64,000 nucleotides of DNA, from contig CAVRLF010000004.1 in NCBI GenBank assembly GCA_963721975.1, positions 3,033-67,032 of the forward strand, read 5' to 3'. A model generated the notes under the pieces. It was not told the origin of the DNA and made no database searches. It saw only the letters and a list, made by a program, of their open reading frames with translations. A program made the translations under genes and the position numbers. The DNA comes from an uncultured Alphaproteobacteria bacterium (GTDB lineage Bacteria; Pseudomonadota; Alphaproteobacteria; Rhizobiales; Rhodomicrobiaceae). Position 1 is the stretch's first letter; the number at the start of each line of letters is the position of its first letter. This document shows positions 9,519 to 44,488 of the stretch, piece after piece.

Positions 9519-9558
9519 GGTTAAGAGAAGGTTGAGATTGGGTTTGTTTCGTAAAACA
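9519..9558 (-). repeat. Core copy of dispersed AT-rich repeat (TGTTTTACGAAACAAACCCAATCT...TTAACC)
   Basis: Reverse complement of the core at 13571-13611 and 44449-44488. Confidence 0.75.
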
Positions 9559-9800
9559 GGGAGCGGCCCGCTCCGAACTCGTCATCCAGGCCTTGCGAAG
9601 CGCGAGCAGCGCCGCGCCCTCGTCCATCACAAAGTGCTTAAATGTTTATGTGTCTGGATTTTGCCGCCCACGGAAGCGCAAGCTGACGGCGGTATTCGAA
9701 GGAGATGGCGTCTTTCGCAATCAACAATGGATCATAAAAAAATCGGTGTCCGGGATCGCCGCCCTGACGGCCATCCCGATGGAAGAAGGGTGACGATGCG

Positions 9801-10592
9801 ATGCGCGTTCTTTTGACGGGAGCGGCGGGCGAAATTGGATCGAGGCTCCGTCGCTTATTGCCGCCGCTCTACGAGCTGGCGCTAACCGACCTTGAGCCGC
9901 CATCCGATTTGCGCCCGGAAGAGACTTTCATCGCAGCCGATCTCGCCGACGCGGCCGCCATAGAGCGCGCCGCCGCGGGCGTCGATGGCATCCTGCATTT
10001 CGGCGGCCAGTCAACCGAGGCGCCCTTCGAGACGATCCTCCAGTCGAACATCGTCGGGACCTACAATCTTTTCGAGGCCGCGCGGAAAGTGAAGGCGCGT
10101 CGCATGGTGTTCGCGTCCACGAACCACGTGGTCGGTTTCTATCCGCGCTCTGAGATCATCGGTCCGCAGGCGCTCCCGCTGCCCGACACGCGCTACGGCG
10201 TCAGCAAGGCGTTCGGCGAAGCGCTCGGCGCGCTTTACGCGCACAAATACGGGCTTAGCGTTTTCTGCATCCGCATCGGCAACGTCTCTGACCGACCCGC
10301 CGACGAGCGGCGGCTCGCCATCTGGCTCAAGCCCGAAGACCTCGTGTCGCTCATCCGGATCGGCCTTGAGCGGGAAAGCCTTGGTTACGAGGTCGTTTAC
10401 GGAGCATCGGACAACGCGCGAAGCTTTTGGGACAATTCCCGCGCCGCCGAGCTCGGTTACAAGCCTGAAGGCCAATCCGAAGCATTTGCGGAAGCCGCGC
10501 TTGCCGCCCAGGCGCTCATCCCCGCGGACACAATCGGCGATCGCTTCCAGGGCGGCCCGTTCTGCTCGCAGGAGTTCGAGGAGCGATCCTGA
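9801..10592 (+). CDS. NAD-dependent epimerase/dehydratase (uronate dehydrogenase-like)
   Basis: TGAAGEIG, FASTNHVVGFY, YGVSKAFGE, YGASDN. Confidence 0.85.
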   Translation: MRVLLTGAAGEIGSRLRRLLPPLYELALTDLEPPSDLRPEETFIAADLADAAAIERAAAGVDGILHFGGQSTEAPFETILQSNIVGTYNLFEAARKVKARRMVFASTNHVVGFYPRSEIIGPQALPLPDTRYGVSKAFGEALGALYAHKYGLSVFCIRIGNVSDRPADERRLAIWLKPEDLVSLIRIGLERESLGYEVVYGASDNARSFWDNSRAAELGYKPEGQSEAFAEAALAAQALIPADTIGDRFQGGPFCSQEFEERS

Positions 10593-10718
10593 ACGTCTAG
10601 ACTGGCGGCTGCAACCTCACATCTTGGCGCGCCTTGACCAGTATGTCATCCACCGGGCGTTGCTGGCGCAGCGGAAGGAATTGGCGCGGCCCGCGCTACC
10701 TGTTCGAAAGGCGTGGCG

Positions 10719-10817
10719 CCCCCTTACACCAGCCCTCTCTCCCTGGGAGAGGGCGTCCGGTCGCAGCCGTCGCAACGGCGTTCCCTCTCCCAGAGGGAGA
10801 GGGACAGGGTGAGGGGG
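10719..10817. repeat. REP-like double-hairpin element (CCCTCTCCC..GGGAGAGGG)
   Basis: Two CCCTCTC(TC)CC/GGGAGAGGG hairpins with outer CCCCT..AGGGG arms, between convergent genes. Confidence 0.75.
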
Positions 10818-10836
10818 TACGGTGTTGTTTTCGCTC

Positions 10837-11046
10837 CTATTCCAGCCGCTTCAACACGCGCTTCTTCGCGGACGGAGCCTTGAGCCATGCTTTCGGCTTC
10901 GGCGCAGGGGCGGCGGCAGGAAACAACTCGACACGCAGTTCCCTGATGCTGACGCTGATTGAGCAGCTTCCCAGCGTCAGGACGGCGGCAAGCGCCGCGG
11001 CGATGCATCCGTTTTTGCGTGTCTTGAGTTTTGAAGGTGCGGTCAT
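10837..11046 (-). CDS. Putative small lipoprotein
   Basis: Basic N-terminus, hydrophobic core and lipobox-like LGSC. Confidence 0.45.
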   Translation of the reverse strand: MTAPSKLKTRKNGCIAAALAAVLTLGSCSISVSIRELRVELFPAAAPAPKPKAWLKAPSAKKRVLKRLE

Positions 11047-11261
11047 AAGGGCCTCCATCGGCTTGGCTGATGACCTCACGCTGGCGAACGGCAGCGCTTG
11101 ACCGCGACGGCAGATGGTGAGCAATCTCCCGTCCGCTGGCGGCAATAGCGTGACGCGGGCGTTGCCGTTAATCTGCCGTTGATTGACGCGCCTTTGACGT
11201 TGCTTTGCCGCCCCTATTTGCTGTTCTATCGCTTTTAGTTATTGCTTGGACAGATGCGCAC

Positions 11262-12218
11262 ATGGCGCTTGAAGACCGCCGCGAACCGATATTCGAGCTC
11301 GCTGAGAAATTTCAGTTCCTGAAGGAAAGCCCCATTGCGCGAGCATGTTGCGGGCACGCCGCGACTGAAAACGCGTTCTGCAAGAAACTTGTCATTCCTC
11401 GGAATACGATCCGGGGGAGCTTGGAGTTAAGTCGCCTGAGCGTCGCGCATCAGCTAAAACTTGCCAATAAATGTGGCTTCTCCCTGGATTGGCCCGAATG
11501 GAATGATCGGGCAGCGACCGGCAGCACCAAGCGTGAAAACCGGTGCGATACCTGTGAGAAGTTCATCAATAGGTATATTGCGGAACACCCCTCCGAGCAG
11601 AAGTCCGAGAGCCGCCCGCCGCTCGCGGAGCCGGTGCTCCTTAAGGAAGATCTGAGGGCAGATACGAACAGCATCCAAACTGAACTTGCCTCGCTATCGC
11701 TGTGGACGGGTCAATCAGAGCCTTCGCCGGGCGAAGCAAAGCTGGGGTTCAATATGAATTGCTACGAAGTTGTGACCGACGGCTTGACGACAGGCGTCAA
11801 GCGCGGGGTCTTGACGTTCCGCTGCGGCGACGGCCATACGACCGAAGTCAAAGATCGAACGGGTTATCCCGGCGGCATCGCGTTCAACGACGCCAAGTTT
11901 ACGCCGCTGAGCGTCAACAAGAATGAGCCGAGCTGGCTCGTGACTGCCACGGGCGCCGCCGCGATTGGCCTCATAGGAGATGCGCCACAGGATTTCATCC
12001 GCATCATGAATCTGATGCCGGGCGAAAGCGTCAGCGCTGACTTCATCGCCTGCGTCAGGGACATCGCGACCACTTTTGTACTGCCCGATGGGCAAAACCA
12101 AAGCGCAGCAAAGCAGAAGATCAAGAAGCGCCTGAGAGAGCTCAAGCTTTCGGGCGGCGAGGAAGGCATCGCGAAGTTGGCGGTCGCCGAGATCAGATTT
12201 GCTGCGCGGGACGATTGA
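11262..12218 (+). CDS. Hypothetical protein with possible N-terminal HTH (ORF open from 11205)
   Basis: Long ORF whose stop lies 1 nt before the next gene's ATG. FCKKLVIPRNTIRGSL..HQLKLANKCGF looks HTH-like. Confidence 0.6.
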   Translation: MALEDRREPIFELAEKFQFLKESPIARACCGHAATENAFCKKLVIPRNTIRGSLELSRLSVAHQLKLANKCGFSLDWPEWNDRAATGSTKRENRCDTCEKFINRYIAEHPSEQKSESRPPLAEPVLLKEDLRADTNSIQTELASLSLWTGQSEPSPGEAKLGFNMNCYEVVTDGLTTGVKRGVLTFRCGDGHTTEVKDRTGYPGGIAFNDAKFTPLSVNKNEPSWLVTATGAAAIGLIGDAPQDFIRIMNLMPGESVSADFIACVRDIATTFVLPDGQNQSAAKQKIKKRLRELKLSGGEEGIAKLAVAEIRFAARDD

Positions 12219-12219
12219 A

Positions 12220-13314
12220 ATGGATGCTTTGTTGCAGCCGGAATCGGATTTGGCAGTCCGCGAAAAACTGATCGATGAGGCCGCCACGGACAACTTCGTG
12301 GAACTGATCAGCATCGCGGGATTGGACCCGAAGAAGCACCTGCGCTTCGCCGATTGGTCTGGCGTCGATTTCGGCGGCAGCGATCTGCGCGGCTTCGATT
12401 TCACGGGCGCGCGACTTATCGCGTGCAATTTCTTGGGCGCGCGCATCGAGGGTGCGCGGTTTGATCAGGCGCTGATCGACGAGGTGCGGCCGGGCGCAAG
12501 GCTCGATCCCCGTCGCACAGATCTGCCAAAGGCCAGAGACTGGATCAGCTACGTGAACAGCTGGAAGAAGGCAGACAGGCCCGCGCCGGAGCATTTGCCG
12601 CCGGGTTCGGTGTTTCAGGATGCGCCGTTTGCGCCGGAGATGGTGGTTGTTCCGCCGGGCCGGTTCTGGATGGGATCGAAGGACCGTGAAGGTTTCAACT
12701 CCGAGCGCCCGCAGCATGAGGTGACGATTCCCCAGGCGTTAGCGGTTGGGCGATTCCCCGTGACGTTCTACGAATGGGAGGCTGCGCGCGCCGCAGGCGC
12801 CGTCGAACCTAAGCCGACGGGTCGTGAGAGCCACCCCGTAACACGTGTATCGTGGGATGAAGCTCAAACCTATGTGTCGTGGTTGTCCCGAGTTACGGAC
12901 AGACCCTACCGGCTTTTGAGCGAGGCAGAGTGGGAATACGCATGCCGGGCGGGGAGGGAGACAGCCTATTCGTTAGGCGACGCCCTCACCGAGACGCTAG
13001 CGCACCTTAGGAAAAATGGGCATCCAACTGTCGAGGTTGGCTTATTTCCTGCGAACGGTTTCGGCGTCTGCGACATGCACCAGAATGTCTGGGAGTGGTG
13101 CGAAGACCGCTGGAACAAGAGCTACAGAGCCAAACCTGAAGGAATAAGACTAACAGGGGAAGCATGGACAATCGGAGAGAGCCGCGTTTTGCGCGGCGGC
13201 CCCTGCGACGGAACTCCCCGCGTGGCACGCGCGGCGCGGCGCGGCATGGCTAGTAATAGCATACTGCTAAACGACGTCGGTTTTCGAGTGGCTAGGAGGC
13301 TTCTTGCCTCTTGA
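12220..13314 (+). CDS. Pentapeptide-repeat plus FGE-sulfatase (SUMF1/EgtB, CLec-fold) domain protein
   Basis: N-terminal ADWSG/VDFGG/SDLRG/FDFTG/ARLIA repeats. C-terminal PEMVVVPPGRFWMGS, YRLLSEAEWEYACRAG, DMHQNVWEWCED, RVLRGG...GFRVAR. Confidence 0.85.
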   Translation: MDALLQPESDLAVREKLIDEAATDNFVELISIAGLDPKKHLRFADWSGVDFGGSDLRGFDFTGARLIACNFLGARIEGARFDQALIDEVRPGARLDPRRTDLPKARDWISYVNSWKKADRPAPEHLPPGSVFQDAPFAPEMVVVPPGRFWMGSKDREGFNSERPQHEVTIPQALAVGRFPVTFYEWEAARAAGAVEPKPTGRESHPVTRVSWDEAQTYVSWLSRVTDRPYRLLSEAEWEYACRAGRETAYSLGDALTETLAHLRKNGHPTVEVGLFPANGFGVCDMHQNVWEWCEDRWNKSYRAKPEGIRLTGEAWTIGESRVLRGGPCDGTPRVARAARRGMASNSILLNDVGFRVARRLLAS

Positions 13315-13471
13315 AGCCTTACCTCGTGTTTTTTTGCCGGGGACGCAAAGTCTTGCTGTCTTTCAGACGGGCGCGCTCCTCTGCGATCAGCGCACAGCCG
13401 GCCTTGAACGCCGCCTCCCGCCCACCGATTTATGGGCAAGCGCTCGGCTCACGGCGGCGACGCTTCAACCT

Positions 13472-13611
13472 CGCATCAACGCTTCCAAACGCAATCCCAA
13501 ACGCAAGCCTTAAGATAAGGTGAACCCGTCGATTTTGAGCGCTTCAAATATAGATGCTTATATATAGACTTGTTTTACGAAACAAACCCAATCTTGACCC
13601 ATTATTAACCG
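13472..13611 (+). repeat. Long copy of dispersed ~140-bp intergenic repeat
   Basis: Colinear similarity with 44352-44488 (GCAATCC, CGCAAG, TTAAGAT, TGAGCGCTTC, TGTTTTAC, CCAATCTTG, TTAACC). Confidence 0.8.
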
Positions 13612-13918
13612 GCCGCCGGCGTTCCGCTTGACGCCGAAACGCTCCCGGTCAAAGCCAGCGCGTCGCGAATCCCGGATAACGTCCGTGGCGTTTCCGGGAA
13701 GACGCGAGCGGCTATTTCCAGCGTTCTAGATCGAGGCCGCCGCAACCTCGCAACCGCAGCGCGACTTGAACGGCGCCGTTTCCATCACAGATTCGTGGGG
13801 GAGTGTTCGGCTCGCGCTGCGTGCTCGCCGTTGCAACGCCCGGCTGCGCCTGTATGATCGCCCCTCGATTCGAGCCGCTCCCTTAGCGGGCGGCGGCGCC
13901 ATAGCGGAGCGATAAGCG

Positions 13919-16246
13919 ATGAAATCCATCGAACAGCGGATTGCGGATGAGCTTGGCGTGCGGGCGCAGCAGGTTCAGGCGGCGGTCGATCTTCTGGACG
14001 GCGGCTCGACGGTGCCGTTCATCGCGCGCTATCGCAAGGAAGTCACCGGCACGCTCGACGACGCGCAGCTTCGCACGCTGGAGGAACGGCTGCGCTATCT
14101 GCGCGAGCTGGAGGAGCGGCGCACGGCGATCCTCGACTCGATCCGCGAGCAGGGCAAGCTCACCGACGAGCTTGAGGCGCAGATCATGGCGGCGGATTCA
14201 AAGGCGCGGCTCGAAGACATCTATCTGCCCTATAAGCCGAAGCGGCGCACGAAGGCGCAGATCGCGAGGGAGGCGGGGCTTGAGCCGCTGGCGGATGCGC
14301 TGCTCAACGATCCGTCGAACATTCCGGACGCGCTGGCCGCGACGTTCATCGACGCCGAGAAGGGCGTGGCCGACGCGGGCGCCGCGCTGGAGGGCGCGCG
14401 CGCTATCCTGGTCGAGCGCTTCGGCGAGGACGCGGACCTCATCGGCAATTTACGCGAGGAGATGTGGGGCCGCGGCCGGATGGCGGCGAAGGCGAAGGAC
14501 GACAAGAAGGACACGCCCGAGGCCGCCAAATTCGCGGATTATTTCGACAAAACCGAGCCGTTCACCAAGATGCCTGCGCATCGTATTCTCGCGATGTTCC
14601 GTGGCGAGAAGGAGGGGTTTCTCGATCTGAATTTCGAGCCGGAAGATCCCGCGCAGGCGCCCGCCAGCGGCCCGAGCCTCTTCGAGGCCCGCATCGCGCG
14701 CAAGTTCAACATCGCCGACCGTGGCCGCCCCGCCGACAAATGGCTGAACGACACGGTGCGCTGGGCCTGGCGCACGCGCATCCAGGGACATCTGTCGGTC
14801 GACCTTCGCATGCGGCTTTGGCAAGCGGCGGAGGAAGAGGCCGTGCGGGTGTTTGCGAGCAATCTGCGCGATCTCCTGCTCGCCGCGCCCGCCGGAACGC
14901 GCGCCACCATGGGCCTCGATCCGGGATTCCGCACCGGCGTGAAGGTCGCTGTGGTGGACGCCACCGGCAAGGTCGCCGAAACGGCCACGATCTATCCGCA
15001 CGAGCCGAAGCGCCTTTGGGGGGAGTCGCTCTCCACCTTGGGCAGGCTGTGCATCCAGCATAAGGTCGAGCTGATCGCCATCGGCAATGGCACCGCTTCG
15101 CGTGAGACGGACAAGCTTGCCGCCGAGCTGGTCGCCGGGCTGGCGCAGCTCAAGATGACAAAGATTGTGGTGTCGGAAGCGGGCGCATCGGTCTATTCCG
15201 CCAGCGCCTACGCCAGCGCTGAGCTGCCCGGCCTCGACGTTTCTCTGCGTGGCGCGGTTTCCATCGCGCGCCGCCTGCAAGACCCGCTGGCCGAGCTTGT
15301 GAAGATCGACCCGAAATCCATCGGCGTCGGCCAGTATCAGCACGACGTGTCGGAATCACAGCTTTCGCGCTCGCTCGACGCGGTGGTGGAAGACTGCGTG
15401 AACGCGGTGGGCGTAGACCTGAACACGGCCTCGGCGCCGCTGCTCTCGCGCGTGTCCGGCATTAGCGAAAGCCTCGCCAAAAATATCGTCGCCTATCGCG
15501 ACTCCAAGGGCGCCTTCAAAAAGCGCAAGGAGCTTCAAGAGGTGCCGCGGCTTGGGCCGAAAGCCTTCGAGCAGGCGGCTGGCTTCCTGCGCATCCCAAA
15601 CGGCGACGACCCGCTCGACGCCTCGTCGGTTCATCCCGAAGCCTACCCGGTCGTGCGCAAGATCGTGGCGGCCGCCAAGACCGACATCAAGAAGCTGATC
15701 GGCAACGCGCCCGTGCTGCGCGGGCTGCAGCCGAAGGAGTTCGTGGACGAGACCTTCGGCCTGCCGACCGTGACCGACATTCTGCGCGAGCTGGAGAAGC
15801 CCGGCCGCGATCCCCGCCCCGCGTTCAAGACCGCGACCTTCCAGGAGGGCGTGGAGAAGATTTCCGACCTGAAGCCCGGCATGGTGCTGGAAGGCGTGGT
15901 GACAAATGTGGCCGCGTTCGGCGCTTTCGTGGACATCGGCGTGCACCAGGATGGGCTCGTGCATGTGTCCGCGCTGTCGAAGACCTTCGTGAAAGACCCG
16001 CGCGAGGTGGTGAAGCCCGGCGACGTCGTGCGCGTGAAGGTGATGGAGGTGGACCAGCCGAGGAAGCGCATCTCGCTCACCCTGCGGCTCGACGATGAGA
16101 TTGGCGCTGGCGACCGTCCGCAAGGCGGCGGAGCGAGGGCGCCGACGCCGAAAAAGATGAGCGCCGCGCCTCAGCGCAAACCCGAGGCCGCCGGCGGCGC
16201 TTTCGCCGACGCGTTTCGCAAGGCGGGGCTGACGGGGCAGAAATAA
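13919..16246 (+). CDS. tex: Tex family RNA-binding transcription accessory protein
   Basis: [33 protein letters not shown], HhH region and C-terminal S1 domain ([15 protein letters not shown]). Confidence 0.95.
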
Positions 16247-16433
16247 TCAAGACGGCTTTGGCGAGTTCATTTCGCAGGCGACGGCGGTAATCTTAGGTGT
16301 TATCTCAACCATAACGAGACATGCCACGCATATACATATTCCGGTTGAGCGTCGGTTTTTGAACATGGATCGGATGCCGAACACGCCTACTGCCCAGGCG
16401 CGGGCCAAGAAGTGATATGTAACGGAGACGGCG

Positions 16434-16842
16434 ATGCTTTTGGAATGGAATGAAAACCTGTCGGTTGGCGTGCCCAGCATCGATGAGCAGCACAAAGCGC
16501 TGTTAGGATTGCTCAATGAACTCTTCGACGCCACGCAGGCTGGGAGAGGGCAGGTCGTGTTGGGCAAGGTGCTTAAGGAGCTTGCCGACTACACAGTTTA
16601 TCATTTCCAGTATGAGGAGTCCCCTCTTCGCCCAGACGGGCTATAGCGCTGCTCCGGATCACATCAAAGAACATGACGAGTTGGTCAGACTGGTTCAAGC
16701 ACTGAGGCAGAAGTATGAGAACGGCGCCACCGAAATTCTGTCTGAAGAGCTTCTGAATTTCCTGAGAAGGTGGCTGTACACGCACATCATGGGCAGTGAC
16801 AAGAAATTCGGGCCGCACTTGGTCTCAATGGGAATAAAGTAA
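16434..16842 (+). pseudogene. Bacteriohemerythrin with a +1 frameshift near 16620 (possible sequencing error)
   Basis: W..LSVG..IDEQHK..HFQYEE in one frame, then LFAQTGY..HIKEH..WL..HI..SD in another. Extra C in TCCCCTC. Confidence 0.8.
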
Positions 16843-17100
16843 TTTGCGGCGGCCCTTTCTGGCGTCGATGGCCTGAGGGGCCTGGAGCGTGTGAAGAACG
16901 TGCGCCCTGAAACCGAAACATCCGCTAAAGAATTTGAAAGCAATCGACGCCGCTCAAACCATCTTCGCTGCTAGCGGCCTATCGCGCTCGTCGGCGGACA
17001 GACGAAATTTGAGGTATTGGAGAAGCCGGAAACGTTGCTTGGGCCAGTTGAAACGGAGGAACAGTTGGCCGGGGCAAGCCCGGCCATTTAGCGCACACAG

Positions 17101-17565
17101 CTACTGGCAGGTCCAGACATAGCCGATATCGGTCATCAGCCAGCACGAGCCCACGCCATACGGCCACCAGCGTCCGCCCCAATAGCGCCGTCCTGTTCCG
17201 TACCAGACGCCGCCGCCATAGCGTCCGCCGACGCGGGGACGGCCGGCGACAACTGCTCCGCCGTGATAGCGCCCTCCTCCGACAACTCTGCCGCCATGAA
17301 CCACGCCCCCTCTTGCGCCATGCACTGCGACCGCTCCGCCGCCGTGAGGGCCACGCACGGCGACGGCGCCGCCACGATGCCCCGCAGCCCCGTGAAAGCC
17401 TCCATGGCCGCCTCCACGAACGCCGCCGCGGACCAAAACCGCGTCGGATGTGGGGGCGATGGCGCTTCGGGCATCGGGTTTGATGTCGACCCCATATGCG
17501 AGATTGACGCCTGCGAGCACGAACATGGTGGCGGCGGCAAAAGATATTAAGTGAAATCTGGGCAT
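17101..17565 (-). CDS. Secreted glycine-rich protein
   Basis: Signal peptide, G/H/R-rich repeats and C-terminal WYG..RRYWGGRWWPYGVGSCW..YVWTCQ. Confidence 0.7.
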   Translation of the reverse strand: MPRFHLISFAAATMFVLAGVNLAYGVDIKPDARSAIAPTSDAVLVRGGVRGGGHGGFHGAAGHRGGAVAVRGPHGGGAVAVHGARGGVVHGGRVVGGGRYHGGAVVAGRPRVGGRYGGGVWYGTGRRYWGGRWWPYGVGSCWLMTDIGYVWTCQ

Positions 17566-17788
17566 GCCCGGTCTCCAAGGACTCCGTTGTAACCATTCAA
17601 AGTTTGACGCTTTCGGCGGTCAGAACCTTGATAACTATCAATATCACAACCGCGACCTGAACGGCCGGTGAATTGAGCCGTATGCTTAAGTTTGGTCGGC
17701 GCATGCGCAGCGCAGGTGTGGGCGCAGCCTCCGCCGTCTGGAAAAGCAAAGGGCGATGAGCGTATTTTATCCGGGTAAAATAACGCTC

Positions 17789-18376
17789 ATGATTTACGAG
17801 ACAACAAGCAATCTCGCATGCACTGCGTTCGACCGCGACCGCAGCATCGCGTCCGGCTCCTACGTGCGCGTTGCGCTTACCGTCAAAGAGCACGTGCGGG
17901 TTTACGCGGATGCGGCTGTCCTCATCTTCGACGATGCGACTGGCGAGCAGATTGATTTCGATTTGCGCGGGTCCGATGAAGACATTTCCGCCCGGATAGT
18001 GAAGCGTTTCCAATGTGCGCCCGCGGAAACCGGCCGCGCTCCGGGGCGTCCCAAATTGGGGGTCGTCGCCCGCGAGGTCACCCTCCTGCCCCGGCATTGG
18101 GAATGGCTCGCAGAACAGCCGGGCGGCGCGTCTGTGGCGCTGCGCAAGCTTGTCGAGGAGGCTCGACGCGTCGCCGACCCGAACAAGGCGCAGATGCATA
18201 AACTGCATCAGCGAGCGTACCGCTTTATGGCGGCAATCGCAGGCAATCGGCCAAACTTCGAGGAGGCCTCCCGGTCGCTGTTCGCCAACGATATGTCTCG
18301 CTTGAGCGAACTCATTTCGGACTGGCCTGCCGACATCCGTGATCACACCTTGCGGCTCTGCATGGAAGATGCGTAA
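17789..18376 (+). CDS. DUF2239 family protein
   Basis: LIFDDATGEQIDFDLRG, GRPKLGVVAREVTLLPRHWEWL, GGASVALRKLVE, FEEASRSLFA. Confidence 0.85.
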   Translation: MIYETTSNLACTAFDRDRSIASGSYVRVALTVKEHVRVYADAAVLIFDDATGEQIDFDLRGSDEDISARIVKRFQCAPAETGRAPGRPKLGVVAREVTLLPRHWEWLAEQPGGASVALRKLVEEARRVADPNKAQMHKLHQRAYRFMAAIAGNRPNFEEASRSLFANDMSRLSELISDWPADIRDHTLRLCMEDA

Positions 18377-34185: not shown

Positions 34186-34254
34186 AAGCGCTTCCCTCGC
34201 CCATGTGTGTTAAATGTGCGTTCCTTTCCACGATAACTTTTTCAAACGGAGCAA

Positions 34255-34994: not shown

Positions 34995-36260
34995 ATGCGG
35001 GGGTTAGGTTTCGTCCTTAAAGCCGTGCTCGCGGTGAGCACCATGCTTGCTCTATTCGCCATCGTCGGAGGCCTGGACTGGCTGGTCGAGCAGAAAATGC
35101 TGAGCGACGAGCAGGCCGAGGCTTCGGCCGCGGCGACGCCGGGCGTCGCGGCTCTTGAGCCTGCGGTTCAAGCGCCTCCCGTCCTCTCTGCGCCGCCGTC
35201 CCAGCCAAGCCTTGCTCAAGCCGCAGCGCTTCCGTCCGCCGACGCGGTTACAGGCGGCGGCATCGCCCCCTTTAATCAGACGCTGGAGGATATCGGCGCA
35301 GACGCTCAGTCGGGGCAGGACATGATCCGCTTCGCCGCCGCCACGCCGCAAATTCCCGCGCTCACGCTCGGGCACATCCCGGCGCTCGTCGCCAAGTTCG
35401 CGCCGGCCAAGGTTCTGTTCGGCGCCGTGAATGCGCCGTCGAGAATGGCGGCGCGCTCTATCGGCTTCTATTCGAGAGGCTGCCTCGCGGGCGCCAGGCC
35501 TCTGCCCGTGAACGGGTCCGCGTGGCAGGCCATGCGCCTTTCCCGAAACCGCATATGGGGCCATCCGTCGCTTGTGCGCTACATCCAGCGCTTCGCCAGG
35601 GACGCCAAGGCCAAGGACGGCTGGCCGGGCCTTCTTATCGGCGACATGTCCATGCCGCGCGGCGGTCCGATGCCTTTCGGCCATGCAAGCCATCAGGTCG
35701 GCCTCGATGTCGATATCTGGTACAGGCCCATGCCCGACCGGATGTTCTCCGCCGAGGAGCGCGAAAGCACGCCCATGGAGACCTTTCTCCTCGATCCAGC
35801 CCACGTCAATCCGCAGATGTGGACGCCCGACAATGCGCGACTCCTGCGCCGGGCCGTCTCCTACCCGGAGGTGGCGCGCGTGTTCGTGAACCCCGCGATC
35901 AAGAAGTGGCTCTGCGACAATGAGAAGGAAGACCGCGCGTTTCTTCGGAAGATCTCGCCTATCATGGGCCATGACGAGCATTTCCATGTGCGTCTCGTCT
36001 GTCCCGCCGACAATCGGAGCTGCCGCAACCAGCCTATGCTGGCCACCGACGAAGGCTGCGGCAAGGGCCTCGACGCCTGGGTCGCCAAACTCTCAAAGGC
36101 GGCGTTGGCGCCCGTCCCCGTGGCGGCGCCTGCGCCCTCGCCGAAAGCCGGGACAACACCATTGCGAGCAACGAGGGGAAAACGCTCCCTCACCTTGGCG
36201 CAACTTCCGCCGGATTGCCGGACCGTTTTACAGGCTCCTTCGATGTCGGCGGCGCGGTGA
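34995..36260 (+). CDS. mepA: Penicillin-insensitive murein endopeptidase with long N-terminal linker
   Basis: GFYSRGCLAGA, RLSRNRIWGHP, SHQVGLDVDIW, HDEHFHVRL.C. Confidence 0.9.
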   Translation: MRGLGFVLKAVLAVSTMLALFAIVGGLDWLVEQKMLSDEQAEASAAATPGVAALEPAVQAPPVLSAPPSQPSLAQAAALPSADAVTGGGIAPFNQTLEDIGADAQSGQDMIRFAAATPQIPALTLGHIPALVAKFAPAKVLFGAVNAPSRMAARSIGFYSRGCLAGARPLPVNGSAWQAMRLSRNRIWGHPSLVRYIQRFARDAKAKDGWPGLLIGDMSMPRGGPMPFGHASHQVGLDVDIWYRPMPDRMFSAEERESTPMETFLLDPAHVNPQMWTPDNARLLRRAVSYPEVARVFVNPAIKKWLCDNEKEDRAFLRKISPIMGHDEHFHVRLVCPADNRSCRNQPMLATDEGCGKGLDAWVAKLSKAALAPVPVAAPAPSPKAGTTPLRATRGKRSLTLAQLPPDCRTVLQAPSMSAAR

Positions 36261-36351
36261 TAAAGTTTTTGGCTTACTCAGAGGCTGGGCGGCTTGAGAG
36301 CGTGCGGCGACGTGGGCGCCAACTTGCCTCGGGCTGTACGAGTCCGCGCCA

Positions 36352-36789
36352 TCATTTCATCACGGCCTTGAGCCTCTCCGCGTGGCTTGCGATAAGAGCG
36401 GTGTCCCCCATGACGCCTGCGGGCCGAAGTGGCATGCCCTCGCGGCGGGGGATCACGTGGACATGCAGGTGAAACACGACCTGTCCGCCCGCAGGCTCGG
36501 AGAATTGCATGACCGTTATGCCGTCGGCGCCGAAAGCCTCCTTGGCCGCTACGGCCACTCTTTGCGTCATGTGGATGAGCGGAGCGAGAACGCTCTGGGG
36601 CGCGTCGAGAATGTTGCGAACGGGCGCCTTGGGGACCACGAGCGTGTGGCCATCCGAGCGCGGCATGATGTCCATGAAAACGAAGGTGTCCGCATCTTCG
36701 CACACAAAGTGACAGGGCGCCTCCCTGCGCAGAATTTTCGCGAAAATGTTGTTCGGGTCGTAGGCTGGCGCAGTCATGGCGATCTCCAT
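36352..36789 (-). CDS. HIT family protein
   Basis: NIFAKILRRE, GHTLVVPK, GQVVFHLHVHVIPR. Confidence 0.92.
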   Translation of the reverse strand: MEIAMTAPAYDPNNIFAKILRREAPCHFVCEDADTFVFMDIMPRSDGHTLVVPKAPVRNILDAPQSVLAPLIHMTQRVAVAAKEAFGADGITVMQFSEPAGGQVVFHLHVHVIPRREGMPLRPAGVMGDTALIASHAERLKAVMK

Positions 36790-37093
36790 CCGCTTTGAGG
36801 TCGCGCTGTTTTGCCCTTACTCGCGAGCGCCGGTCAAGCGCAGGAGGCAAACGAGTGAAGGCGGCGCACGCATAACGCCCGCCGCCTCTTTGGACAGCAT
36901 ATGTTGTGGGGCAATATGCTGCTCTCAGGACAACGCCCTTGGCTGCTGCTTATTCCCGAACTCTCCTCTGTTTTCGAAGGAATCATGCAAAAAATATTTA
37001 ACTGAAGCATCACGCGAGCGCGCAGCCGAAGCAAGCTCAAAAAGATAAACAGTTGTGCCGGCGCGCATTCGAACAAAAGCTTTAATATATCGT

Positions 37094-38128
37094 TTACGAA
37101 TGTTGCAGGGCATGGCGAAGGCGCGATAGTTCTTCTTCGCCTTTCGCCAGTCCGAAGCGCATAACGCTTCGATCCTGAAAGGGCCGGGTCAACACGCCTT
37201 GCGATGCAAGGCGGCGGAAAATCTCGTTCGCAGCCGTAGTAGCGGCCAGCGTGAACAGCGCCGCGCCGCCCAGGATACGAAGCCCGGCGTTCTCAAGCAC
37301 GGCGTTGAGCGCGTTCGCAGCCTCGTTCAACCTCGTCCGCTGGGACAAGGCCCAGTCCACGTTGGCGAGCGCAGCGTCCCCAAACGCCAGCGCCTGAGCG
37401 CAAATCGGCTCAGCGCCCAGCGCCGACCTGAGCCGCCCGGCGATCGGATGCGACGTGATCGCAAAGCCGAGCCCGATGCCTGCGCCGCCATAAAACTCGC
37501 CGAGCGACCGAAGGACGACCGTGTAGTCGAGGCGGCCCACTTCGGGGAGAAGCGAGTGCGCCGGATCGGCGTCGGCGAAGGTCTCATCGACAATCAGCAG
37601 CCCGTCGCGGCGCTTGAGCGGCGGCAAAGCCGCGGCGAGATCGCCATGCGGAACGACGCGGCCATCGACATGGCTCGGATTGACCACGATAAGGATGGCC
37701 GCCTTGCCGAGGTGATCCAGCGACTCGATGGTCGATACCGAATGCCCCGCCGCCTCCCAGGCCGCGGCATGGCCCGCGTGTCCCGGCGCGAGGACGGCGA
37801 CGCGCTTCGGCTCGCGGAAAAGCCAGGGCAGGATGCTCAAGCCGGCAGTCACGCCCGGCAGGGGGACAGCGTCGGCGACACCGGGCGCGCGATAAGCCTT
37901 CTTCGCCGCCGCGGTCAGTCGTTGCAAGGCCGCCGCGTCAGGATGGCGGCGCAACTCGCTGGCGGATGGGGCCGGAAAAGGACAACTCCACGGGCTGATG
38001 GCGGTCGAAAGGTCGATCCACGGCTGCGGCGCACCCGGATAAACCTCCCGCGCAACATCGAGGCGGCCGCCTCGCTCATAGAAACGCGGGTCAATTTCGT
38101 ACGCCAATGCGCCTGCCTTACCGAACAT
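37094..38128 (-). CDS. cobD: Threonine-phosphate decarboxylase (cobalamin pathway, CobD/CobC-type)
   Basis: IDLSTAISP, VVNPS..DG, VDETFAD, LRSLGEFYGGAGIGLGF. The expected PLP lysine position reads E. Confidence 0.7.
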   Translation of the reverse strand: MFGKAGALAYEIDPRFYERGGRLDVAREVYPGAPQPWIDLSTAISPWSCPFPAPSASELRRHPDAAALQRLTAAAKKAYRAPGVADAVPLPGVTAGLSILPWLFREPKRVAVLAPGHAGHAAAWEAAGHSVSTIESLDHLGKAAILIVVNPSHVDGRVVPHGDLAAALPPLKRRDGLLIVDETFADADPAHSLLPEVGRLDYTVVLRSLGEFYGGAGIGLGFAITSHPIAGRLRSALGAEPICAQALAFGDAALANVDWALSQRTRLNEAANALNAVLENAGLRILGGAALFTLAATTAANEIFRRLASQGVLTRPFQDRSVMRFGLAKGEEELSRLRHALQHS

Positions 38129-38252
38129 TTCCGCCTTAGCCTCCGAAAGACGTTAGCGTCGCGCATTCATCATAGGGCGCTGCCCCCTCTGGCGCTATGC
38201 TGCAACTTGCGACCACTTGGTCCCTGTGCTGGGATCTTAAGAGGCGCTTTCT

Positions 38253-38621
38253 TTACCCCTCGCAGGCGAAAGCGCCGGGCTGGCGGCCATACTCGCGCGA
38301 CCCTGCGTAGTGGTTGAAGTTGTCCTTATCGATCCACACCACCGAGCCTTTGCAATGGGCTTTCGCCTCGGCCTCGCTGCCAAACCGGCCGCGCTTCGAC
38401 TTCGCCTCTGCACCAGCGGATTTCGAGGGCTGATCGCCGTCCTGGTTTTTCTTCTTTGAATGCTTCTTCGCCTTTTCCTTCGGCGCCGCATCCGATGAAG
38501 CGGAACTGGCGGCCGGCGGAGCTGCGTTTTGCGCTGTCTGAGCCATGGCTATTGAACTTGCAAAGATCATAACGCATGCGACCCCGAAAATCCTGGAGCG
38601 CAGCATTGTTTCTTCAGTCAT
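38253..38621 (-). CDS. Secreted hypothetical protein
   Basis: Signal peptide, low-complexity linker and C-terminal F.SEAEAKAHC..VVWI..YG..GAFAC. Confidence 0.65.
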   Translation of the reverse strand: MTEETMLRSRIFGVACVMIFASSIAMAQTAQNAAPPAASSASSDAAPKEKAKKHSKKKNQDGDQPSKSAGAEAKSKRGRFGSEAEAKAHCKGSVVWIDKDNFNHYAGSREYGRQPGAFACEG

Positions 38622-38844
38622 GAGGAGGACCCTCCGAGCAATTTTTCCGAATTTCTTACAACGTGGATATAAATCCACAAATCTGGGTAAAATCTTGATG
38701 CTGAACGCTTTCCGCCGGTGTTTTTTCAACCGCCGGTAGGTCGCCGATTGAGAGCCTGGCAGAGACCCATCTTGCGCGCTCTGCTATAGTCCCGCAAAAA
38801 GATTTAGGATGGTGGCCAGCCAATGCGCCGCCCGGAGCCGTGGA

Positions 38845-40062
38845 ATGACTGAGACAGCCGAAAAGAAAGCGCGCGATGCGGCCTTCTTCGATTGGGCCGA
38901 TCCTTTTTTGCTGCACGAGCAGCTGAGCCACGAAGAGCGTCTGATCGCGGAGACCGCGCATTCCTTCGCTGAAGACCGGCTGCGGCCCCGTGTGGTGGAA
39001 GCCTACGCGCATGAAAAGACGGATCGCTCCATTTTCAACGAAATGGGCGAACTCGGGCTTCTCGGCCTCACCCTGCCGCCTGACTATGGCGGCGCGGGCG
39101 CGTCTTATGTCGCCTACGGTCTTGTGGCCCGCGAAATCGAGCGCGTCGATTCCGGCTACCGCAGTATGATGAGCGTGCAATCCTCGCTCGTCATGTATCC
39201 CATCTACGCTTACGGAAATGACGAGCAGCGCGCGAAATATTTGCGGAAGCTCTCGACCGGCGAGTATGTCGGCTGCTTCGGCTTGACTGAGCCCGATGCA
39301 GGGTCGGACCCCGGCGCAATGGCGACGGTCGCTGAGCCCATCAACGGCGGCGGCTACAGGCTCAGCGGCTCGAAGACATGGATCTCGAACTCGCCCATCG
39401 CCGATGTTTTCATCGTCTGGGCCAAATCGCGTGCGCATCAGAATAAGGTTCGCGGTTTCGTCCTGGAGAAGGGGATGCGCGGACTTTCAGCCCCCAAGAT
39501 CGAGGGCAAGCTTTCCTTGCGCGCCTCCGTCACCGGCCAGATCGTCATGGAGGGCGTCGAGGCGCCTGAAAGCGCTCTCCTTGAGGGCGCGTCGGGCTTG
39601 CAGGCCGCGTTCAACTGCCTCAACCGCGCGCGCTTTGGCATCGCGTGGGGCGTCATGGGCGCGGCGGAGGATTGCCTGCACCGGGCGCGGCAGTATGCGC
39701 TCGACCGCAAGCAGTTCGGCCGTCCGCTGGCGGCGACGCAGCTCGTGCAGAAGAAGCTTGCCGACATGCAGACGGAGATCGCGCTCGGCCTTCAGGCGGC
39801 GCTGCGCATAGGCCGCCTCTTCGACGAAGGCAAGGCCGCGCCGGAAATGATGTCGCTCGTCAAGCGCAACAATTGCGGCAAGGCGCTCGATATTGCGCGC
39901 GCCGCCCGCGACATCCACGGCGGCAACGGCATTTCCGGCGAGTATCACGTGATGCGCCACGCGCAGAACCTCGAAACCGTCAACACCTATGAAGGCGCCC
40001 ACGACGTGCATGCGCTCATTCTCGGCCGCGCGCTGACCGGCATCCAGGCGTTTTCGGCTTAA
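38845..40062 (+). CDS. gcdH: Acyl-CoA dehydrogenase (glutaryl-CoA dehydrogenase-like)
   Basis: [56 protein letters not shown]. Confidence 0.85.
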
Positions 40063-40363
40063 GCGGGTGTTCGCGACTTGACCAACGAATGGACGGCGGA
40101 AGTGAGCCTCCTCACTTTCTGTCGGAGAGGCCGCAAGCTGACTAAACGGCACTAGATACTTACTTAGCTCGGTGCGCCCGCTTTAAGATCGCTTTGCGGA
40201 CGACCATGAAAACCCCTCAAGTATCCTCGGCGCCGAAGATGTGCTGCGCGGGCGGTCTGCCCGGTCGCCAGAAGCGGACTATCCCTTCGAAGGAGACCTC
40301 CAGCCAGCAGCCGACGTTCCCTATGTCAAAACCTTGCCTTGTCAACGTCCGGAGTCTCAGGCG

Positions 40364-41374
40364 CTATTTTGCTGAAACGGGCTCAGGAAACTTCCAGCTT
40401 CCGTCGAGGATCTCGGACCTGGGCCGGTACAGACGCGCGATATAGTTCCAGCCCGGCATGATCCTGAGATGATTGGGCGCGGCGGGATCCCCGCCGAAGT
40501 GAACGGTCGTCGTGCCGTCGGCGTTCTTTTTCGCGGTCAGGTTGTTGACCGAGATGGCGTTGGCGGGCGGCTCGAAAAAGCCGTCCTTGTTGTAGACGGT
40601 GATCGACCAGAAAGCGTCCACCGGCACGTCCTTGACCGTCAGCGTGTAGGGCGTGACGCCGTCATTGTCTTTCACCACGGCGTTGACATAGAGCGCGTCC
40701 TTCTCCCTGTTGCCGGCGAAACCGGCGGCCGTGCCGATGAAATGGGCGACCGGATCGACCTCGCTCACGTCGCCGAACATGCCGCGGCTGCCGGAGACAT
40801 AGGGCGTCATGGTCAGGATCGCCGCGCGCAAGCCGTTCAGCTGGTCCTGATCCCAATCAGGGACCTCGAATTTTCCAGGATTGTCCTGAATGACCTTGAT
40901 GCCGTCCTGCGCCTTCTTCAATTCAGCGATGTCGGCGGGATCGTTCGGATCGACCAGGGTGCGGAAGCCGACCTGAACATACCGGGTACCCATTTTATCC
41001 TGGGTGAGGGTGTAGGTTCCCGGTTCGTAGGCGACGAGCTTGATGTAATGATCCTCGTTGATCACAACCATGGACTGGAAGCGCTGCCCCGTGTCGGGCT
41101 TGACGATGGTCACGGGGGTCGAGAGATCGAAAACCGCCATGCTATAGGGCGTATCCCGGTTCATGCGGATGATGATCTGCTTATCGATCGCCGGCGGCCC
41201 CGGTTCGTTGCAGAACTTGCCGAAGCACCCCGCGTCGGCCTTGGCCTTGAAATAGTGGTCGGTTTCCGCGCGGACGAAATTGTCCACCGTCACCCGCTCG
41301 GCGGCGGATGCTAGCCCCGAATTGAATAAAATCGCGGCGACCAGAAGCGATGCCCGTAAGACCCCCATCAACAA
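40364..41374 (-). CDS. DUF1254/DUF1214 domain periplasmic protein
   Basis: NFVRAETD, RMNRDTPYS, VPVDAFWSITVYN, PGWNYIARLYRP. Confidence 0.85.
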   Translation of the reverse strand: MLMGVLRASLLVAAILFNSGLASAAERVTVDNFVRAETDHYFKAKADAGCFGKFCNEPGPPAIDKQIIIRMNRDTPYSMAVFDLSTPVTIVKPDTGQRFQSMVVINEDHYIKLVAYEPGTYTLTQDKMGTRYVQVGFRTLVDPNDPADIAELKKAQDGIKVIQDNPGKFEVPDWDQDQLNGLRAAILTMTPYVSGSRGMFGDVSEVDPVAHFIGTAAGFAGNREKDALYVNAVVKDNDGVTPYTLTVKDVPVDAFWSITVYNKDGFFEPPANAISVNNLTAKKNADGTTTVHFGGDPAAPNHLRIMPGWNYIARLYRPRSEILDGSWKFPEPVSAK

Positions 41375-41404
41375 TCTCCCTCATACCTGAAAACACGAGC
41401 CGCC

Positions 41405-42280
41405 CTATTGCTTGGACGTCCGCACAATGAATTCCGACATCAGTCGTATCAGAGCGGGGCCGCGCTCATTGAGCATGTTGTGTCCGCACCCCGGTAGACC
41501 TACGAGCCAGGTATTCGGCCTTGATTTGGCTATGCTGAGAGCGCTTTCCGGCACTGCGACACGATCAAGCAGGCACGTCATGACCAGCATCGGGGCTGTG
41601 CCGCCCTCGGCCCACTCCGCCTTCGGAGTGGCGTCGGAGGCTTTCACCTGAGCCGCAGCCAGGGCGGGATGTTCGCCCTCCGCCGCGTCGAGCGCCGCGA
41701 AATGCTCGTTTCCGGGCGCGTACATAAGTTGGCCTTGAAGGTTTAGCCACTCATCCTTCGGCGTTTTGGGATCAACGTAGCGCTTGTAGAGAGCTATGGT
41801 CTCTGCGTCGGGCATGATGTCTCCGCCGGCGCCGATCAGGATCACGCTGAGAACGCGGTCGGGCCTGTCATGGGAGGCCGCGCGAACAACGCGATTTCCA
41901 TAGGTCTTTCCGGCCAAATGAATCTTCTGCGCCCCGAGAGCGTCGGCCACGCGCCACAAATCATTGGCGTAGTCGTGAAGAGAGAGTCCGTCGATCGCTC
42001 CAGTGCTGGCTCCGAGCGTCCGGTAGTTGTAAGTGACCACGCGGATTCCCAAGGCGGCGACGCCTGCGGCGAGGTCGTTCAATTGCGACGCCGGGCGGCC
42101 GTTTCCCGCGGCCATGATCAGAGTTTCGGCGCCGTTTCCAAACACAAACGCTTCGATGTCGCTTCCGTCTGATTTGACAAGCAATCTTGCCCCTTCGCTG
42201 GCGGCGTGGAGTGGGACGATTGCGAGGAAGAGAGCGGACACTATCCCGAGGCTGGCGGAAATGGCGTTTCGGAAATCCAT
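41405..42280 (-). CDS. Secreted alpha/beta hydrolase fold protein
   Basis: Signal peptide, YNYRTLGAS and GHNM. The nucleophile elbow reads GKTYG rather than GxSxG. Confidence 0.7.
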   Translation of the reverse strand: MDFRNAISASLGIVSALFLAIVPLHAASEGARLLVKSDGSDIEAFVFGNGAETLIMAAGNGRPASQLNDLAAGVAALGIRVVTYNYRTLGASTGAIDGLSLHDYANDLWRVADALGAQKIHLAGKTYGNRVVRAASHDRPDRVLSVILIGAGGDIMPDAETIALYKRYVDPKTPKDEWLNLQGQLMYAPGNEHFAALDAAEGEHPALAAAQVKASDATPKAEWAEGGTAPMLVMTCLLDRVAVPESALSIAKSRPNTWLVGLPGCGHNMLNERGPALIRLMSEFIVRTSKQ

Positions 42281-43217
42281 AGTTCCTCTGATTTTGTGCC
42301 GTTAAGGTTATGCCTGGAACGTGAAACGGCATCCTATTGATGACTTTAAACTACGATAAATCTAGGCAGAAGTCACCAACCGGGCATTTTGGCGGAGGGA
42401 AGGAAACTTTTTCCCAGTCATGCCGACCTACATGCCCGGGGACACATTGCTCAAGCAGGTGTGACAACCGCCGGCTGTGAAAGACGCAAGCAGCAATTAG
42501 CGCGGAGTGAGTGCTGTCGAGGGAACAACTCGGCCTTTTCGCCGAGATAGGCGAGGACCGGTTAGGGTGAAGGGCGGGAGTGTCTCGTCGTTTTTGGAGA
42601 AGACTGCAGTTGGATCCGAAAGCCGCCATGCCGAGCATGGCTTCGCGAGAAAGCCGCCACGGCAGCTCCCGACCCATAGGTCGCATGCGGCAATGCCGGC
42701 GACCCCGGCCATGCAGCCCGGTTCGCCGCCGGCCCTGCGGATCGGAGCCCGCCGCGGGACGCTTCTTCGAGGCCGCACATCTCGGCCAAGCGCGCTCAGC
42801 ATTTCTTTTCCTTTTGCGCCTATACAATCTTAAGTAGAGTTTTTGTTGTGCGAGCGTTCTCATGTCGGGGCTCTCCATTCCGCCGGGCGCTGTTGCGGCC
42901 GGCATCATCGCCAGCGTGTGCGCCGCTGAAACAAGCGCCGCCGCTGTCACCGATCCTTCCGCCACAAGTCGAACGCAGCTCGAAGGAACCCCGCCCCTCG
43001 CACAGCTTTCTTGGTTGAGCCAACGGTTTGAGCCCCTCTCCCGGCCGCTTCGCGGCTGTGGGCGCATAAGGTGGCAAGCTTGCCAAGTTGAGCTTGCGCT
43101 GGAGAGGGACGCGGTGAGGGGGCAAACCTTTAGGCAAGCCCGTAAAGCTTTCTTCGTTCATCACCGACGCTGCCGACCCGTGGGATATGAAACGGTCCAG
43201 TCCTCAAGCGAGGTCTC

Positions 43218-44330
43218 ATGCCATTCATCATGAAGCACTTTTGGGGATCGTCGCTGATCGCGGCTTTGGCGTTCGTCTCCTTCGGATTTTGTTATTCCGC
43301 TTTGGAGCGAAGCTCAGTGGAAGAGCAGATGGAGAGCGAGTTGCGCTCCGTGGCGCAAGCCCAGGCGCAGCGGCTAAGCGCGAATCTTTCGAGTTTGTGG
43401 CGCATCGTCGAGATGATCGCGGACGAGGCGTCCGCGCACCCGGACGCCCTGCAGCAGACGCTCATCGACGCCCGCCGCTTTAACCCCGCGTTGACCTTGC
43501 TCGGCTTGGCGAAAGTCGATGGAACGGTGACCGCAGCCACTGACGGCGAGGAGACGAGCGTCGCCCAGGCGCCCTGGTTCGCGAGCGCCGTAAGAAGTCC
43601 GATTGTGAGGGCGGCGTCTCCCGAGGCGGGGTCTTATTCCGCCACCCTTGTGCTGGCCAAACCCGTGCGCACGAAGGAAGGCCAAACGGTCGCCGTGCTC
43701 TTCGCGCTTGCGCCGCTGAACGATCTTGTCGCGTCCAGTGCGGGCGGCTGGCAAGGCGAAAGCATCCTCGCCGCCAATGACGGCCATCGTCTCATCGGAT
43801 GGGAGAACGCAGCGCCTTCAGCCGCGAGCGCCTCTTCAGCGAGGGCCCGCGACCGTGGCGAATGGCTCGCCGCGACGGCCCAGGCGACGTCAGGCGGCGC
43901 CTTTCCCGACACAGGCTGGTCCCTGACGGTCGCGCGCTCGAAAACGGAGGTCGATCGGCGTCTGGCCCCGATGCTGTGGAAGCTCTGGGCCGGATGTTTC
44001 GCCATGGCCTGCTTCACCCTGATCGCGGTCGCCGCGTGGACCGCGTGGCTTGCCGCGCCCCTGAAAGAGCTTGCCCTGTTCGCCGCAGCCGCCTCCAATG
44101 GAAGGCTGGTCAACCCCATTCGTGAAAGCCGTTTCCGTGAGGCGGCGGTGCTCTCCAGCGCGCTTGTCAAGCTTTGCACGAGCCTCAGAAGAATGAACGC
44201 GCCGCATACATTCCGTATCGTCGCCACCGAGGCGGAGGTCGATGGCGAGCGCGACCTCATCTTCGACGACCTCGTGCTTCACATCAATGCGCTCATGGAC
44301 GAGGAATGCCAGATGCCGGTCGAACTATGA
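43218..44330 (+). CDS. Membrane protein with Cache-like periplasmic domain and HAMP-like segment, no recognisable output domain
   Basis: TM1, then LVLAKPVRTKEGQTVAVL and TGWSLTVAR, then TM2, then APLKELA.. Confidence 0.65.
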   Translation: MPFIMKHFWGSSLIAALAFVSFGFCYSALERSSVEEQMESELRSVAQAQAQRLSANLSSLWRIVEMIADEASAHPDALQQTLIDARRFNPALTLLGLAKVDGTVTAATDGEETSVAQAPWFASAVRSPIVRAASPEAGSYSATLVLAKPVRTKEGQTVAVLFALAPLNDLVASSAGGWQGESILAANDGHRLIGWENAAPSAASASSARARDRGEWLAATAQATSGGAFPDTGWSLTVARSKTEVDRRLAPMLWKLWAGCFAMACFTLIAVAAWTAWLAAPLKELALFAAAASNGRLVNPIRESRFREAAVLSSALVKLCTSLRRMNAPHTFRIVATEAEVDGERDLIFDDLVLHINALMDEECQMPVEL

Positions 44331-44351
44331 GCTGCGGCCCTTGTGGGAGCG

Positions 44352-44488
44352 CCGCATCCGCTTCTGAACGCAATCCTGAGCGCAAGGCTTAAGATCGATT
44401 TGTCAATTCTGAGCGCTTCGAATAAGTGCTTGGATAGTTTAATAGGCCTGTTTTACCAAACGAAACCAATCTTGGTTCTCTGTTAACC
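44352..44488 (+). repeat. Long copy of dispersed ~140-bp intergenic repeat
   Basis: Colinear with 13472-13611. Confidence 0.8.

Follow-up and report, generated by a model that had tools for sequence, protein, structure and literature searches.

An abundant, apparently undescribed intergenic repeat family with an asymmetric 24-nt core in an uncultured member of the Rhodomicrobiaceae

Is the AT-rich sequence that recurs between the genes of this alphaproteobacterium a mobile element, a binding site or an RNA? The 64,000-nt stretch in which it was noticed (hereafter the window) is C4:3033-67032 of G000, a draft genome of 5.84 Mb in 21 contigs with 60% GC, whose Tex-like protein is 88% identical to its Rhodomicrobium udaipurense homologue; sites within the window are given below in window positions. 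The initial annotation of the window described a dispersed repeat and offered a non-autonomous mobile element, a protein-binding or recombination site, or a noncoding RNA motif as explanations. Our analysis revealed that the repeat family is real, abundant and apparently undescribed; no description of it was found in the searchable literature. With about even confidence, we favor a genus-restricted, non-autonomous, mosaic family that resembles repetitive extragenic palindromes (REPs) and bacterial interspersed mosaic elements (BIMEs) or miniature inverted-repeat transposable elements (MITEs), and in which a short common core is a conserved protein-recognition cargo.

The initial annotation expected many copies genome-wide and proposed an nhmmer search for them. 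Run over the whole genome with iteration, this search returned 193 copies, 192 of which are anchored on the core, so that copies outside the window are abundant. The core, C..TTTTAC.AAAC(G/A)A(A/T)(C/A)CCAAT.T, is 24 nt long and asymmetric. Its pattern has 106 and 86 matches on the two strands of the genome and 0 for a reversed-pattern control, and within the window the 19-nt pattern TTTRCNAAACRAWMCCAAT (at most two mismatches) has 3 matches as compared with 0.00 in 100 shuffles; these controls exclude chance for the core.

Masking the core and then clustering the flanks divided the copies into scaffold families: a ~430-nt element with 64 copies, the family of the initial annotation with 41 copies and a true length of ~300–380 nt, two further families with 23 and 8 copies, and about 57 copies in unique contexts (singletons). 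When each context is weighted once, the information content is ~2 bits per position over the 24 nt C..TTTTAC.AAAC.A..CCAAT.T, with weaker conservation in an AT-rich stretch from -40 to -15 and in a T(T/A)AA(C/G) box 11 or 15 nt after CCAAT. Homology between the scaffold families is confined to -13 to +29 around the core, and therefore the universal repeated unit is a ~42-nt module and the remainder is scaffold. The core is a module common to several unrelated scaffolds, a point that the first reading had missed. A small open reading frame (ORF) beside the element was rejected, as no consistent ORF was present; the recurrent sequence GCCCATGGC proved to be a small palindrome rather than a start codon.

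The two ~140-bp colinear copies described initially (13472-13611 and 44352-44488, both on the plus strand) were confirmed by reading the sequence; they are 71% identical over 156 nt and share, after a series of ordered blocks, the 3' end TGTTTTAC(G/C)AAAC(A/G)AA(C/A)CCAATCT-N10-TTAACC. The first is a full-length copy of the family then taken as ~150 nt long (flank cluster 1), at 13470..13620 on the plus strand (nhmmer C4:16502-16652, E 2.6e-35), flanked by two plus-strand genes. Its 24-nt core TGTTTTACGAAACAAACCCAATCT, located by sequence reading and pattern match, spans 13571..13594, with an AT-rich flank at ~13546-13569 and a TTAACC box at 13606-13611, all on the plus strand. The second belongs to a cluster-1a copy in a convergent spacer, at 44359..44605 on the plus strand (nhmmer C4:47391-47530 and alignment); its plus-strand core TGTTTTACCAAACGAAACCAATCT spans 44449..44472, followed by TTAACC at 44483-44488, and has a different haplotype from that of the first. 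Homology of this second copy to 11 sister copies continues past 44488 via GCGGCTGGCG...CATCCGC..GCGGAT...CCGACC to about 44605. The sites of the ~140-bp unit therefore stand, while its length does not, because both copies are parts of longer mosaic repeats.

The inverted core described at 9519-9558 is complete and belongs to a singleton copy on the minus strand, with the core at 9535-9558 and a CTTAACC box at 9519-9525. An imperfect 10-bp inverted repeat, CTGGACGACG...CGTCATCCAG, encloses this copy, and the divergent spacer around it marks a break in synteny with the congeners. The other inverted core, at 63031-63064, is also real; it ends with ...GTTTCGT (63064), where the 5' end (GTGCG) of a group II intron interrupts it, and flank homology assigns 62900..63064 on the minus strand to the 3' half, in element orientation, of a member of the 64-copy family (flank cluster 0), the core of which stops after ...ATTGGTTTTGTTTCGT. 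The partial copy at 924..939 on the plus strand is a relic, an exact 16-mer CAAAACGAACCCAATC that represents the 3' two-thirds of the core without its TTTTAC part and is not among the nhmmer matches. Thus, what had been taken for a single family has the core in common but is not one element, since the copy at 9519 is a singleton and that at 63031 belongs to the 64-copy family. The copies were rightly called not strongly palindromic: their DNA folding z-scores range from -1.6 to +1.2, and the sole recurrent pairing is a 4–6-bp A/T hairpin, TGTTT-tacg-AAACA.

The spacers that hold the window copies coincide with synteny breaks relative to the congeners. A 45-nt segment at 9563-9607 (cgaactcgtcatccaggccttgcgaagcgcgagc...), adjoining the inverted core, matches at least 30 places at 87% in the congener G006 and few elsewhere, and represents another lineage-specific repeat module. 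A palindromic REP-like repeat of ~100 nt at 10720-10816, which matches on both strands, forms a different family with a far wider distribution than the AT-rich one; each congener searched has dozens of copies of it.

The placement of the copies was analysed with genes called by a home-made codon-usage caller built on G000 (5044 genes, 77% genome coverage). Between predicted genes lie 186 of the 192 copies, and 6 lie inside them, in agreement with the initial description of the repeat as intergenic and AT-rich in a GC-rich genome. Relative to an expectation based on intergenic base pairs, the copies are enriched in convergent spacers (63 vs 36.8 expected), depleted 2.3-fold in divergent spacers (21 vs 47.9) and as expected in co-directional ones (102 vs 101.2; chi2 33.7, p 5e-8). 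The orientation bias relative to genes for which the initial annotation proposed a check is absent (48 vs 54 among co-directional spacers), and for the replichores, GC skew carries no signal in this draft (genes 833 vs 827) and no orientation bias was seen. The copies occur singly at roughly random intervals (median 21.7 kb, coefficient of variation 0.89), and no close inverted core pairs were found, the nearest neighbouring cores being at least 1.4 kb apart. Selfish or tolerated repeats, for example REPs and MITEs, are distributed in this way, whereas promoters and operators are not. At C4:474700-477650, a ~2.6-kb tandem duplication contains the core followed by a hairpin that is apparently the terminator of the convergent gene, which shows the typical position of the core just past a terminator.

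These results bear on the proposal that the repeat is a portable promoter or small RNA gene family, with the AT-rich block as promoter and the core as the 5' end (seed) of the transcript or a shared leader. Three observations agree with it. The core is in most contexts immediately preceded on its 5' side by an AT-rich block containing TA-rich hexamers; its strand, which is rich in C and poor in G, is unstructured and seed-like; and 13 of the 23 copies of the 23-copy family have a co-oriented gene downstream. However, a co-oriented gene follows only 70 of 187 copies genome-wide (37%), divergent spacers, which are rich in promoters, are avoided, and the 64-copy family has GC-rich sequence in place of the AT-rich block beside the core. 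The genes downstream of the 23-copy family are mutually unrelated, by which a leader of one gene family was also rejected. Neither 140-bp copy contains a sigma-70-like (TTGACA-N16-18-TATAAT) or terminator-like site. An Rfam scan of the window at the gathering score and of 15 representative copies at E<=1 matched only introns and a tRNA, and RNAalifold found no structure on either strand among 65 singleton and small-family copies. The covariation analysis proposed in the initial annotation gave a term of -0.28 kcal/mol for 20 aligned copies of the 64-copy family, with double changes in 3 of 55 pairs and no conserved fold. No RNA sequencing run was found that contains the locus or the 64-copy element. 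We consider a promoter or small RNA family rather improbable. The noncoding RNA option of the initial annotation fared no better, as there was no consensus fold, almost no covariation, no promoter or terminator consensus and no gene orientation; from these comparisons, we do not think that the core acts as RNA.

The distribution of the family was examined with the core pattern, allowing at most one mismatch, in 18 congeners and G000. G000 has 192 matches, followed by G008 (107), G010 (93), G012 (77), G001 (45), G009 (19), G013 (14), G006 (13) and G016 (12); ten other congeners, complete genomes among them, have 0. The family is thus present in 8 of the 18 congeners. Twelve other families of the order gave 0–1 matches each, and the reversed-pattern control gave 0 everywhere. 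Beyond the genus, the 19-mer occurs mostly once per genome, close to the rate expected by chance in 596 Gb. Bryobacterales metagenome-assembled genomes (MAGs) contain about a dozen exact 19-nt matches, one contig having two 113 nt apart, and these exceed the single chance matches of other phyla.

In 5–8 congeners, each with ~12–107 cores, the regions up to 1.5 kb from the orthologues of murB, tex and the gene at window 45102-46028 contained no core, which shows that copy positions are lineage-specific and not inherited at the three loci compared. The genes murB and ddl are adjacent in G013, G003 and G001 but separated in G000 at C3:175780-176140; the DNA inserted between them holds one core and a gene whose predicted product has an N-terminus resembling family III CoA-transferases (formyl-CoA transferase-like). 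In G008, almost all of ~100 copies have the core variant TTTGCAAAACGAACCCAAT, and in G010, almost all of ~94 copies have TTTGCCAAACGAACCCAAT, the two species dialects differing by a single base (A in G008, C in G010). Many G010 copies are near-identical over 200–300 nt, which points to a recent burst there; the uniformity in the two species reflects bursts or concerted evolution. No orthologous empty site could be aligned by synteny, the intergenic DNA of the congeners being too diverged, and two metagenome DNA runs yielded only short contigs of relatives and no joints.

One alternative is a host cis-site under selection, such as a regulon operator (for example, of CtrA), a loading site for nucleoid proteins, gyrase or condensin, or a species "self" tag, with the dialects reflecting co-evolution with a reader protein. 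Several properties agree with such a site: the near-invariance of the core across unrelated contexts, the single-base dialects, the singly dispersed copies at near-random spacing, the conserved TTAAC half-site close to the core, and the preference for convergent spacers, which recalls REP/gyrase sites and terminator-embedded uptake sequences. However, zero copies in 10 of 18 congeners, including complete genomes, means that the site cannot be essential; moreover, positions are not conserved at orthologous loci and divergent promoter regions are avoided. Among 323 loci scanned, of which ~100 bear a core, the full CtrA box TTAA-N7-TTAAC was never found at a core; it matched in 3 core-bearing loci, two of them the same place, and the half-site alone is conserved.

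DNA uptake sequences, namely the Neisseria DUS and the Pasteurellaceae USS with their dialects, occur in thousands of copies, also within genes and across the whole species group. The present repeat is like them in being an asymmetric word with an AT-rich flank and single-base species dialects, frequent between convergent genes. It differs in that its ~100–190 copies per genome are ten- to twenty-fold fewer, far below uptake-sequence densities, with only 6 of the 192 in predicted genes and none in most congeners, and no transformation system is linked to it. A host cis-site is in our judgement unlikely, although it has a real chance.

The four variable positions of the core form a few linked haplotypes (CGAA 39, GATC 29, AGAC 28, GAAC 27, CAAA 16 and others), with a strong association between positions 1 and 4, and the same haplotypes are found in every flank family. 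In the 64-copy family, these four positions are the most variable columns, adjacent scaffold columns being 90–100% identical, and a 12-nt indel at a distance of 60 nt occurs in different combinations with the haplotypes. Short-tract exchange between copies seems the simplest explanation of this pattern.

The core is also a target of group II introns. Three core copies are interrupted at one identical bond, TTTT^AC on the plus strand and ...TTTNGT^AAAA on the intron strand, by introns of at least two lineages, which shows that RmInt1-like group II introns use the core, a safe, multi-copy site, as a homing site. One insertion, at C4:66097 (window 63064|63065), follows ...TTTNGT; its intron begins with GTGCG at 63065, occupies 63065..64000 on the plus strand and continues beyond the window end (Rfam RF02005, 96.6 bits). 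A second, at C10:376609, also follows ...TTTNGT. The third, at C10:13070-13810 (region C10:12850-13950; RF01999 105.6 bits, RF00029 47 bits), is an ORF-less intron of ~760 nt in a cluster-1 copy with both exon junctions and both copy halves intact, and rejoining the flanks restores the core.

The window intron is split near 63254 by a 2664-nt insertion sequence (IS; C4:66286-68949) with a ~508-aa ORF, present in about 17 genome copies of 99.6–99.9% identity; the first 182 residues of the ORF have no Pfam match. A cluster-1 copy is preceded, ~85 nt upstream, by a group II intron 3' end at C17:497330-497433 (RF00029 37.5 bits, slightly below the gathering score), the target of which is not the core.

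An origin centred on the introns would make the core uniform because it is a homing site, with invasion and loss or reverse transcriptase-mediated conversion homogenizing or diversifying it. This proposal is in line with the three independent insertions at one phosphodiester bond, in at least two lineages and once with both junctions intact, and with the four hypervariable positions, which, counted from the insertion point, are -3, -8, -10 and -11, all within the 11 nt on its 5' side and inside the expected IBS1/IBS2 region. However, only 3 of the 192 copies are occupied, the sister intron copies at C8, C3 and C10:5982 use another target, GGGTCGCGAGCGG^CGCGATC, and the conserved module extends from -40 to +30, well beyond any exon-binding footprint. 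Bacterial group II intron retrohoming does not copy exon sequence to new loci and thus cannot create the repeat. We regard an intron-centred origin as very unlikely.

Another proposal, which we regard as quite improbable, is that the core is the cis-site of a hitherto unrecognized sequence-specific DNA-acting system (for example, nicking, recombination or RNA-guided), where cutting triggers copy-to-copy repair. Flanks would then "home" from one core to another, and this would account for the mosaic build of the scaffolds, the absence of inverted repeats and of fixed ends, and the reassortment of haplotypes with nearby markers, as well as for the hypervariability of four positions and the fixation of a single haplotype throughout a species. 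If true, repeats would here propagate by a mode different from both REP/RAYT and transposition by terminal inverted repeats.

In G010, the core lies within a frame bounded by a 17-nt inverted repeat, GAGCGTGTGAAAAAATC (28 + 29 occurrences, none in G012). At least 16 core-containing GAGCGTGTGAAAAAATC pairs are 289–366 nt apart; at least 3 further pairs, 154–188 nt apart, have an alternative, unrelated interior without a core. The outer arms of this frame are composed of ATTCCCGC...GCGGGAAT modules, and no empty palindromic target for the G010 carrier was found. In G000, one paralogue of the 64-copy element is without the inner ~330-nt core-bearing segment, which in full elements has GCCGC on both sides. 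A related autonomous IS sharing the ends was sought by BLAST of the elements and flanks against the genome, which gave non-coding copies only. Inverted matches showed no excess, by which we rejected placement of the core between inverted repeats or at the apex of a long hairpin specific to each locus. A variable 5' and a fixed 3' end, the signature of retro- or rolling-circle movement, was ruled out, as both sides are ragged. The initial suggestion of a non-autonomous mobile element is supported only loosely, by lineage-specific positions and the burst in a sister genome, whereas terminal inverted repeats, defined termini and a partner transposase are absent in G000.

Mobilization of a REP/REPIN family by RAYT, a Y1 HUH transposase, was also considered. 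The repeat is short, extragenic, high-copy, species-homogeneous and embedded in mosaics, and a PF01797 search gave 10 Y1_Tnp matches in G000 and 15 in G008. However, REPs co-occur with RAYT genes and flank them, while no phyletic or positional link is seen here: G010 has 94 cores and 0 Y1_Tnp, G014, G015, G017 and G018 have Y1_Tnp and 0 cores, and no G000 Y1 gene lies within 3 kb of a core. REPs are imperfect palindromes of 20–40 nt with a stable hairpin and REPINs are inverted doublets, whereas the present core is asymmetric and its copies are single. This explanation is already contradicted by the phyletic pattern and is hardly credible.

Several points weigh against the mosaic, mobile reading that we favor. 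No binding protein, transposase or target-site duplication was identified for the repeat, and terminal inverted repeats are absent in G000, where the top inverted score between the two flanks of a copy has a median of 8.5, as compared with 9.0 for other-locus and direct controls (n=192). G000 copies also have no sharp termini, and therefore classical cut-and-paste or copy-and-paste transposition is not demonstrated there. A deletion between the 5-nt repeats could also have produced the one "empty site". Simple "protein contact plus drift" leaves the four hypervariable core positions partly unaccounted for. Finally, gene positions rest on a home-made caller covering 77% of the genome, and the comparison set is without a relative above 95% identity that could reveal insertion polymorphisms.

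Nevertheless, we favor a mosaic family of mobile carriers with a protein-recognition core. The constant part is the ~42-nt module, consisting of the 24-nt core, its AT-rich 5' side and the T(T/A)AA(C/G) box 11 or 15 nt 3', which unrelated scaffolds may have captured as internal cargo. How copies are made we infer from their comparison: composite elements would amplify in lineage-specific bursts and then decay through truncation, copies would swap short tracts among themselves, and survival would be mostly in convergent spacers at gene 3' ends, where harm is least. The core may stay near-invariant while scaffolds turn over because a sequence-specific protein, either a host factor or a mobilizing enzyme, reads it as double-stranded DNA, and binding of this protein may aid the spread or retention of the carrier. 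A protein-binding or recombination site, one of the options of the initial annotation, is our best inference for the core.

The closest parallels are the BIMEs and REP mosaics of enterobacteria and pseudomonads, including the REPIN-RAYT system (PMC3116915, PMC3337134). Like them, the present family has a short conserved unit with hundreds of extragenic copies that is combined with other motifs into mosaics, is enriched at gene 3' ends, is uniform within and different between species, and serves as an insertion target of other mobile elements (PMC1525189). It also resembles Correia-type MITEs in being non-coding, 100–450 nt long and present in dozens to hundreds of copies with an internal protein-binding or promoter-like cargo, and the recently amplified G010 frame with its 17-nt inverted repeat fits this type. 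The Correia elements of Neisseria are cargo-carrying MITEs. The family differs from MITEs in that G000 copies are without terminal inverted repeats, defined ends, a clear target-site duplication or a related autonomous IS, and in that the same cargo occurs in several unrelated frames. As for the introns, RmInt1, a class D group II intron, homes into ISRm2011-2. The two cases are alike in that introns of one lineage insert at a single exact base of a sequence that is repeated and dispensable; they differ in the target, an IS transposase gene for RmInt1 and the 24-nt core of an intergenic repeat here.

Most dispersed repeats in bacteria are either palindromes (REP, ERIC, RPE) or have inverted repeats at their ends (MITEs). 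The present family is of neither type: a 24-nt asymmetric word is kept letter-perfect in ~100 copies per species while its carrier sequences are replaced. The repeat accounts for synteny breaks and assembly gaps in Rhodomicrobium MAGs, and intron-based genome tools for the genus could use its core as a defined multi-copy target. If a protein reads the core, the repeat marks a genome-wide system in this budding, photosynthetic alphaproteobacterial lineage; if nothing reads it, the family is a clean natural case of non-autonomous elements that capture cargo and evolve in concert.

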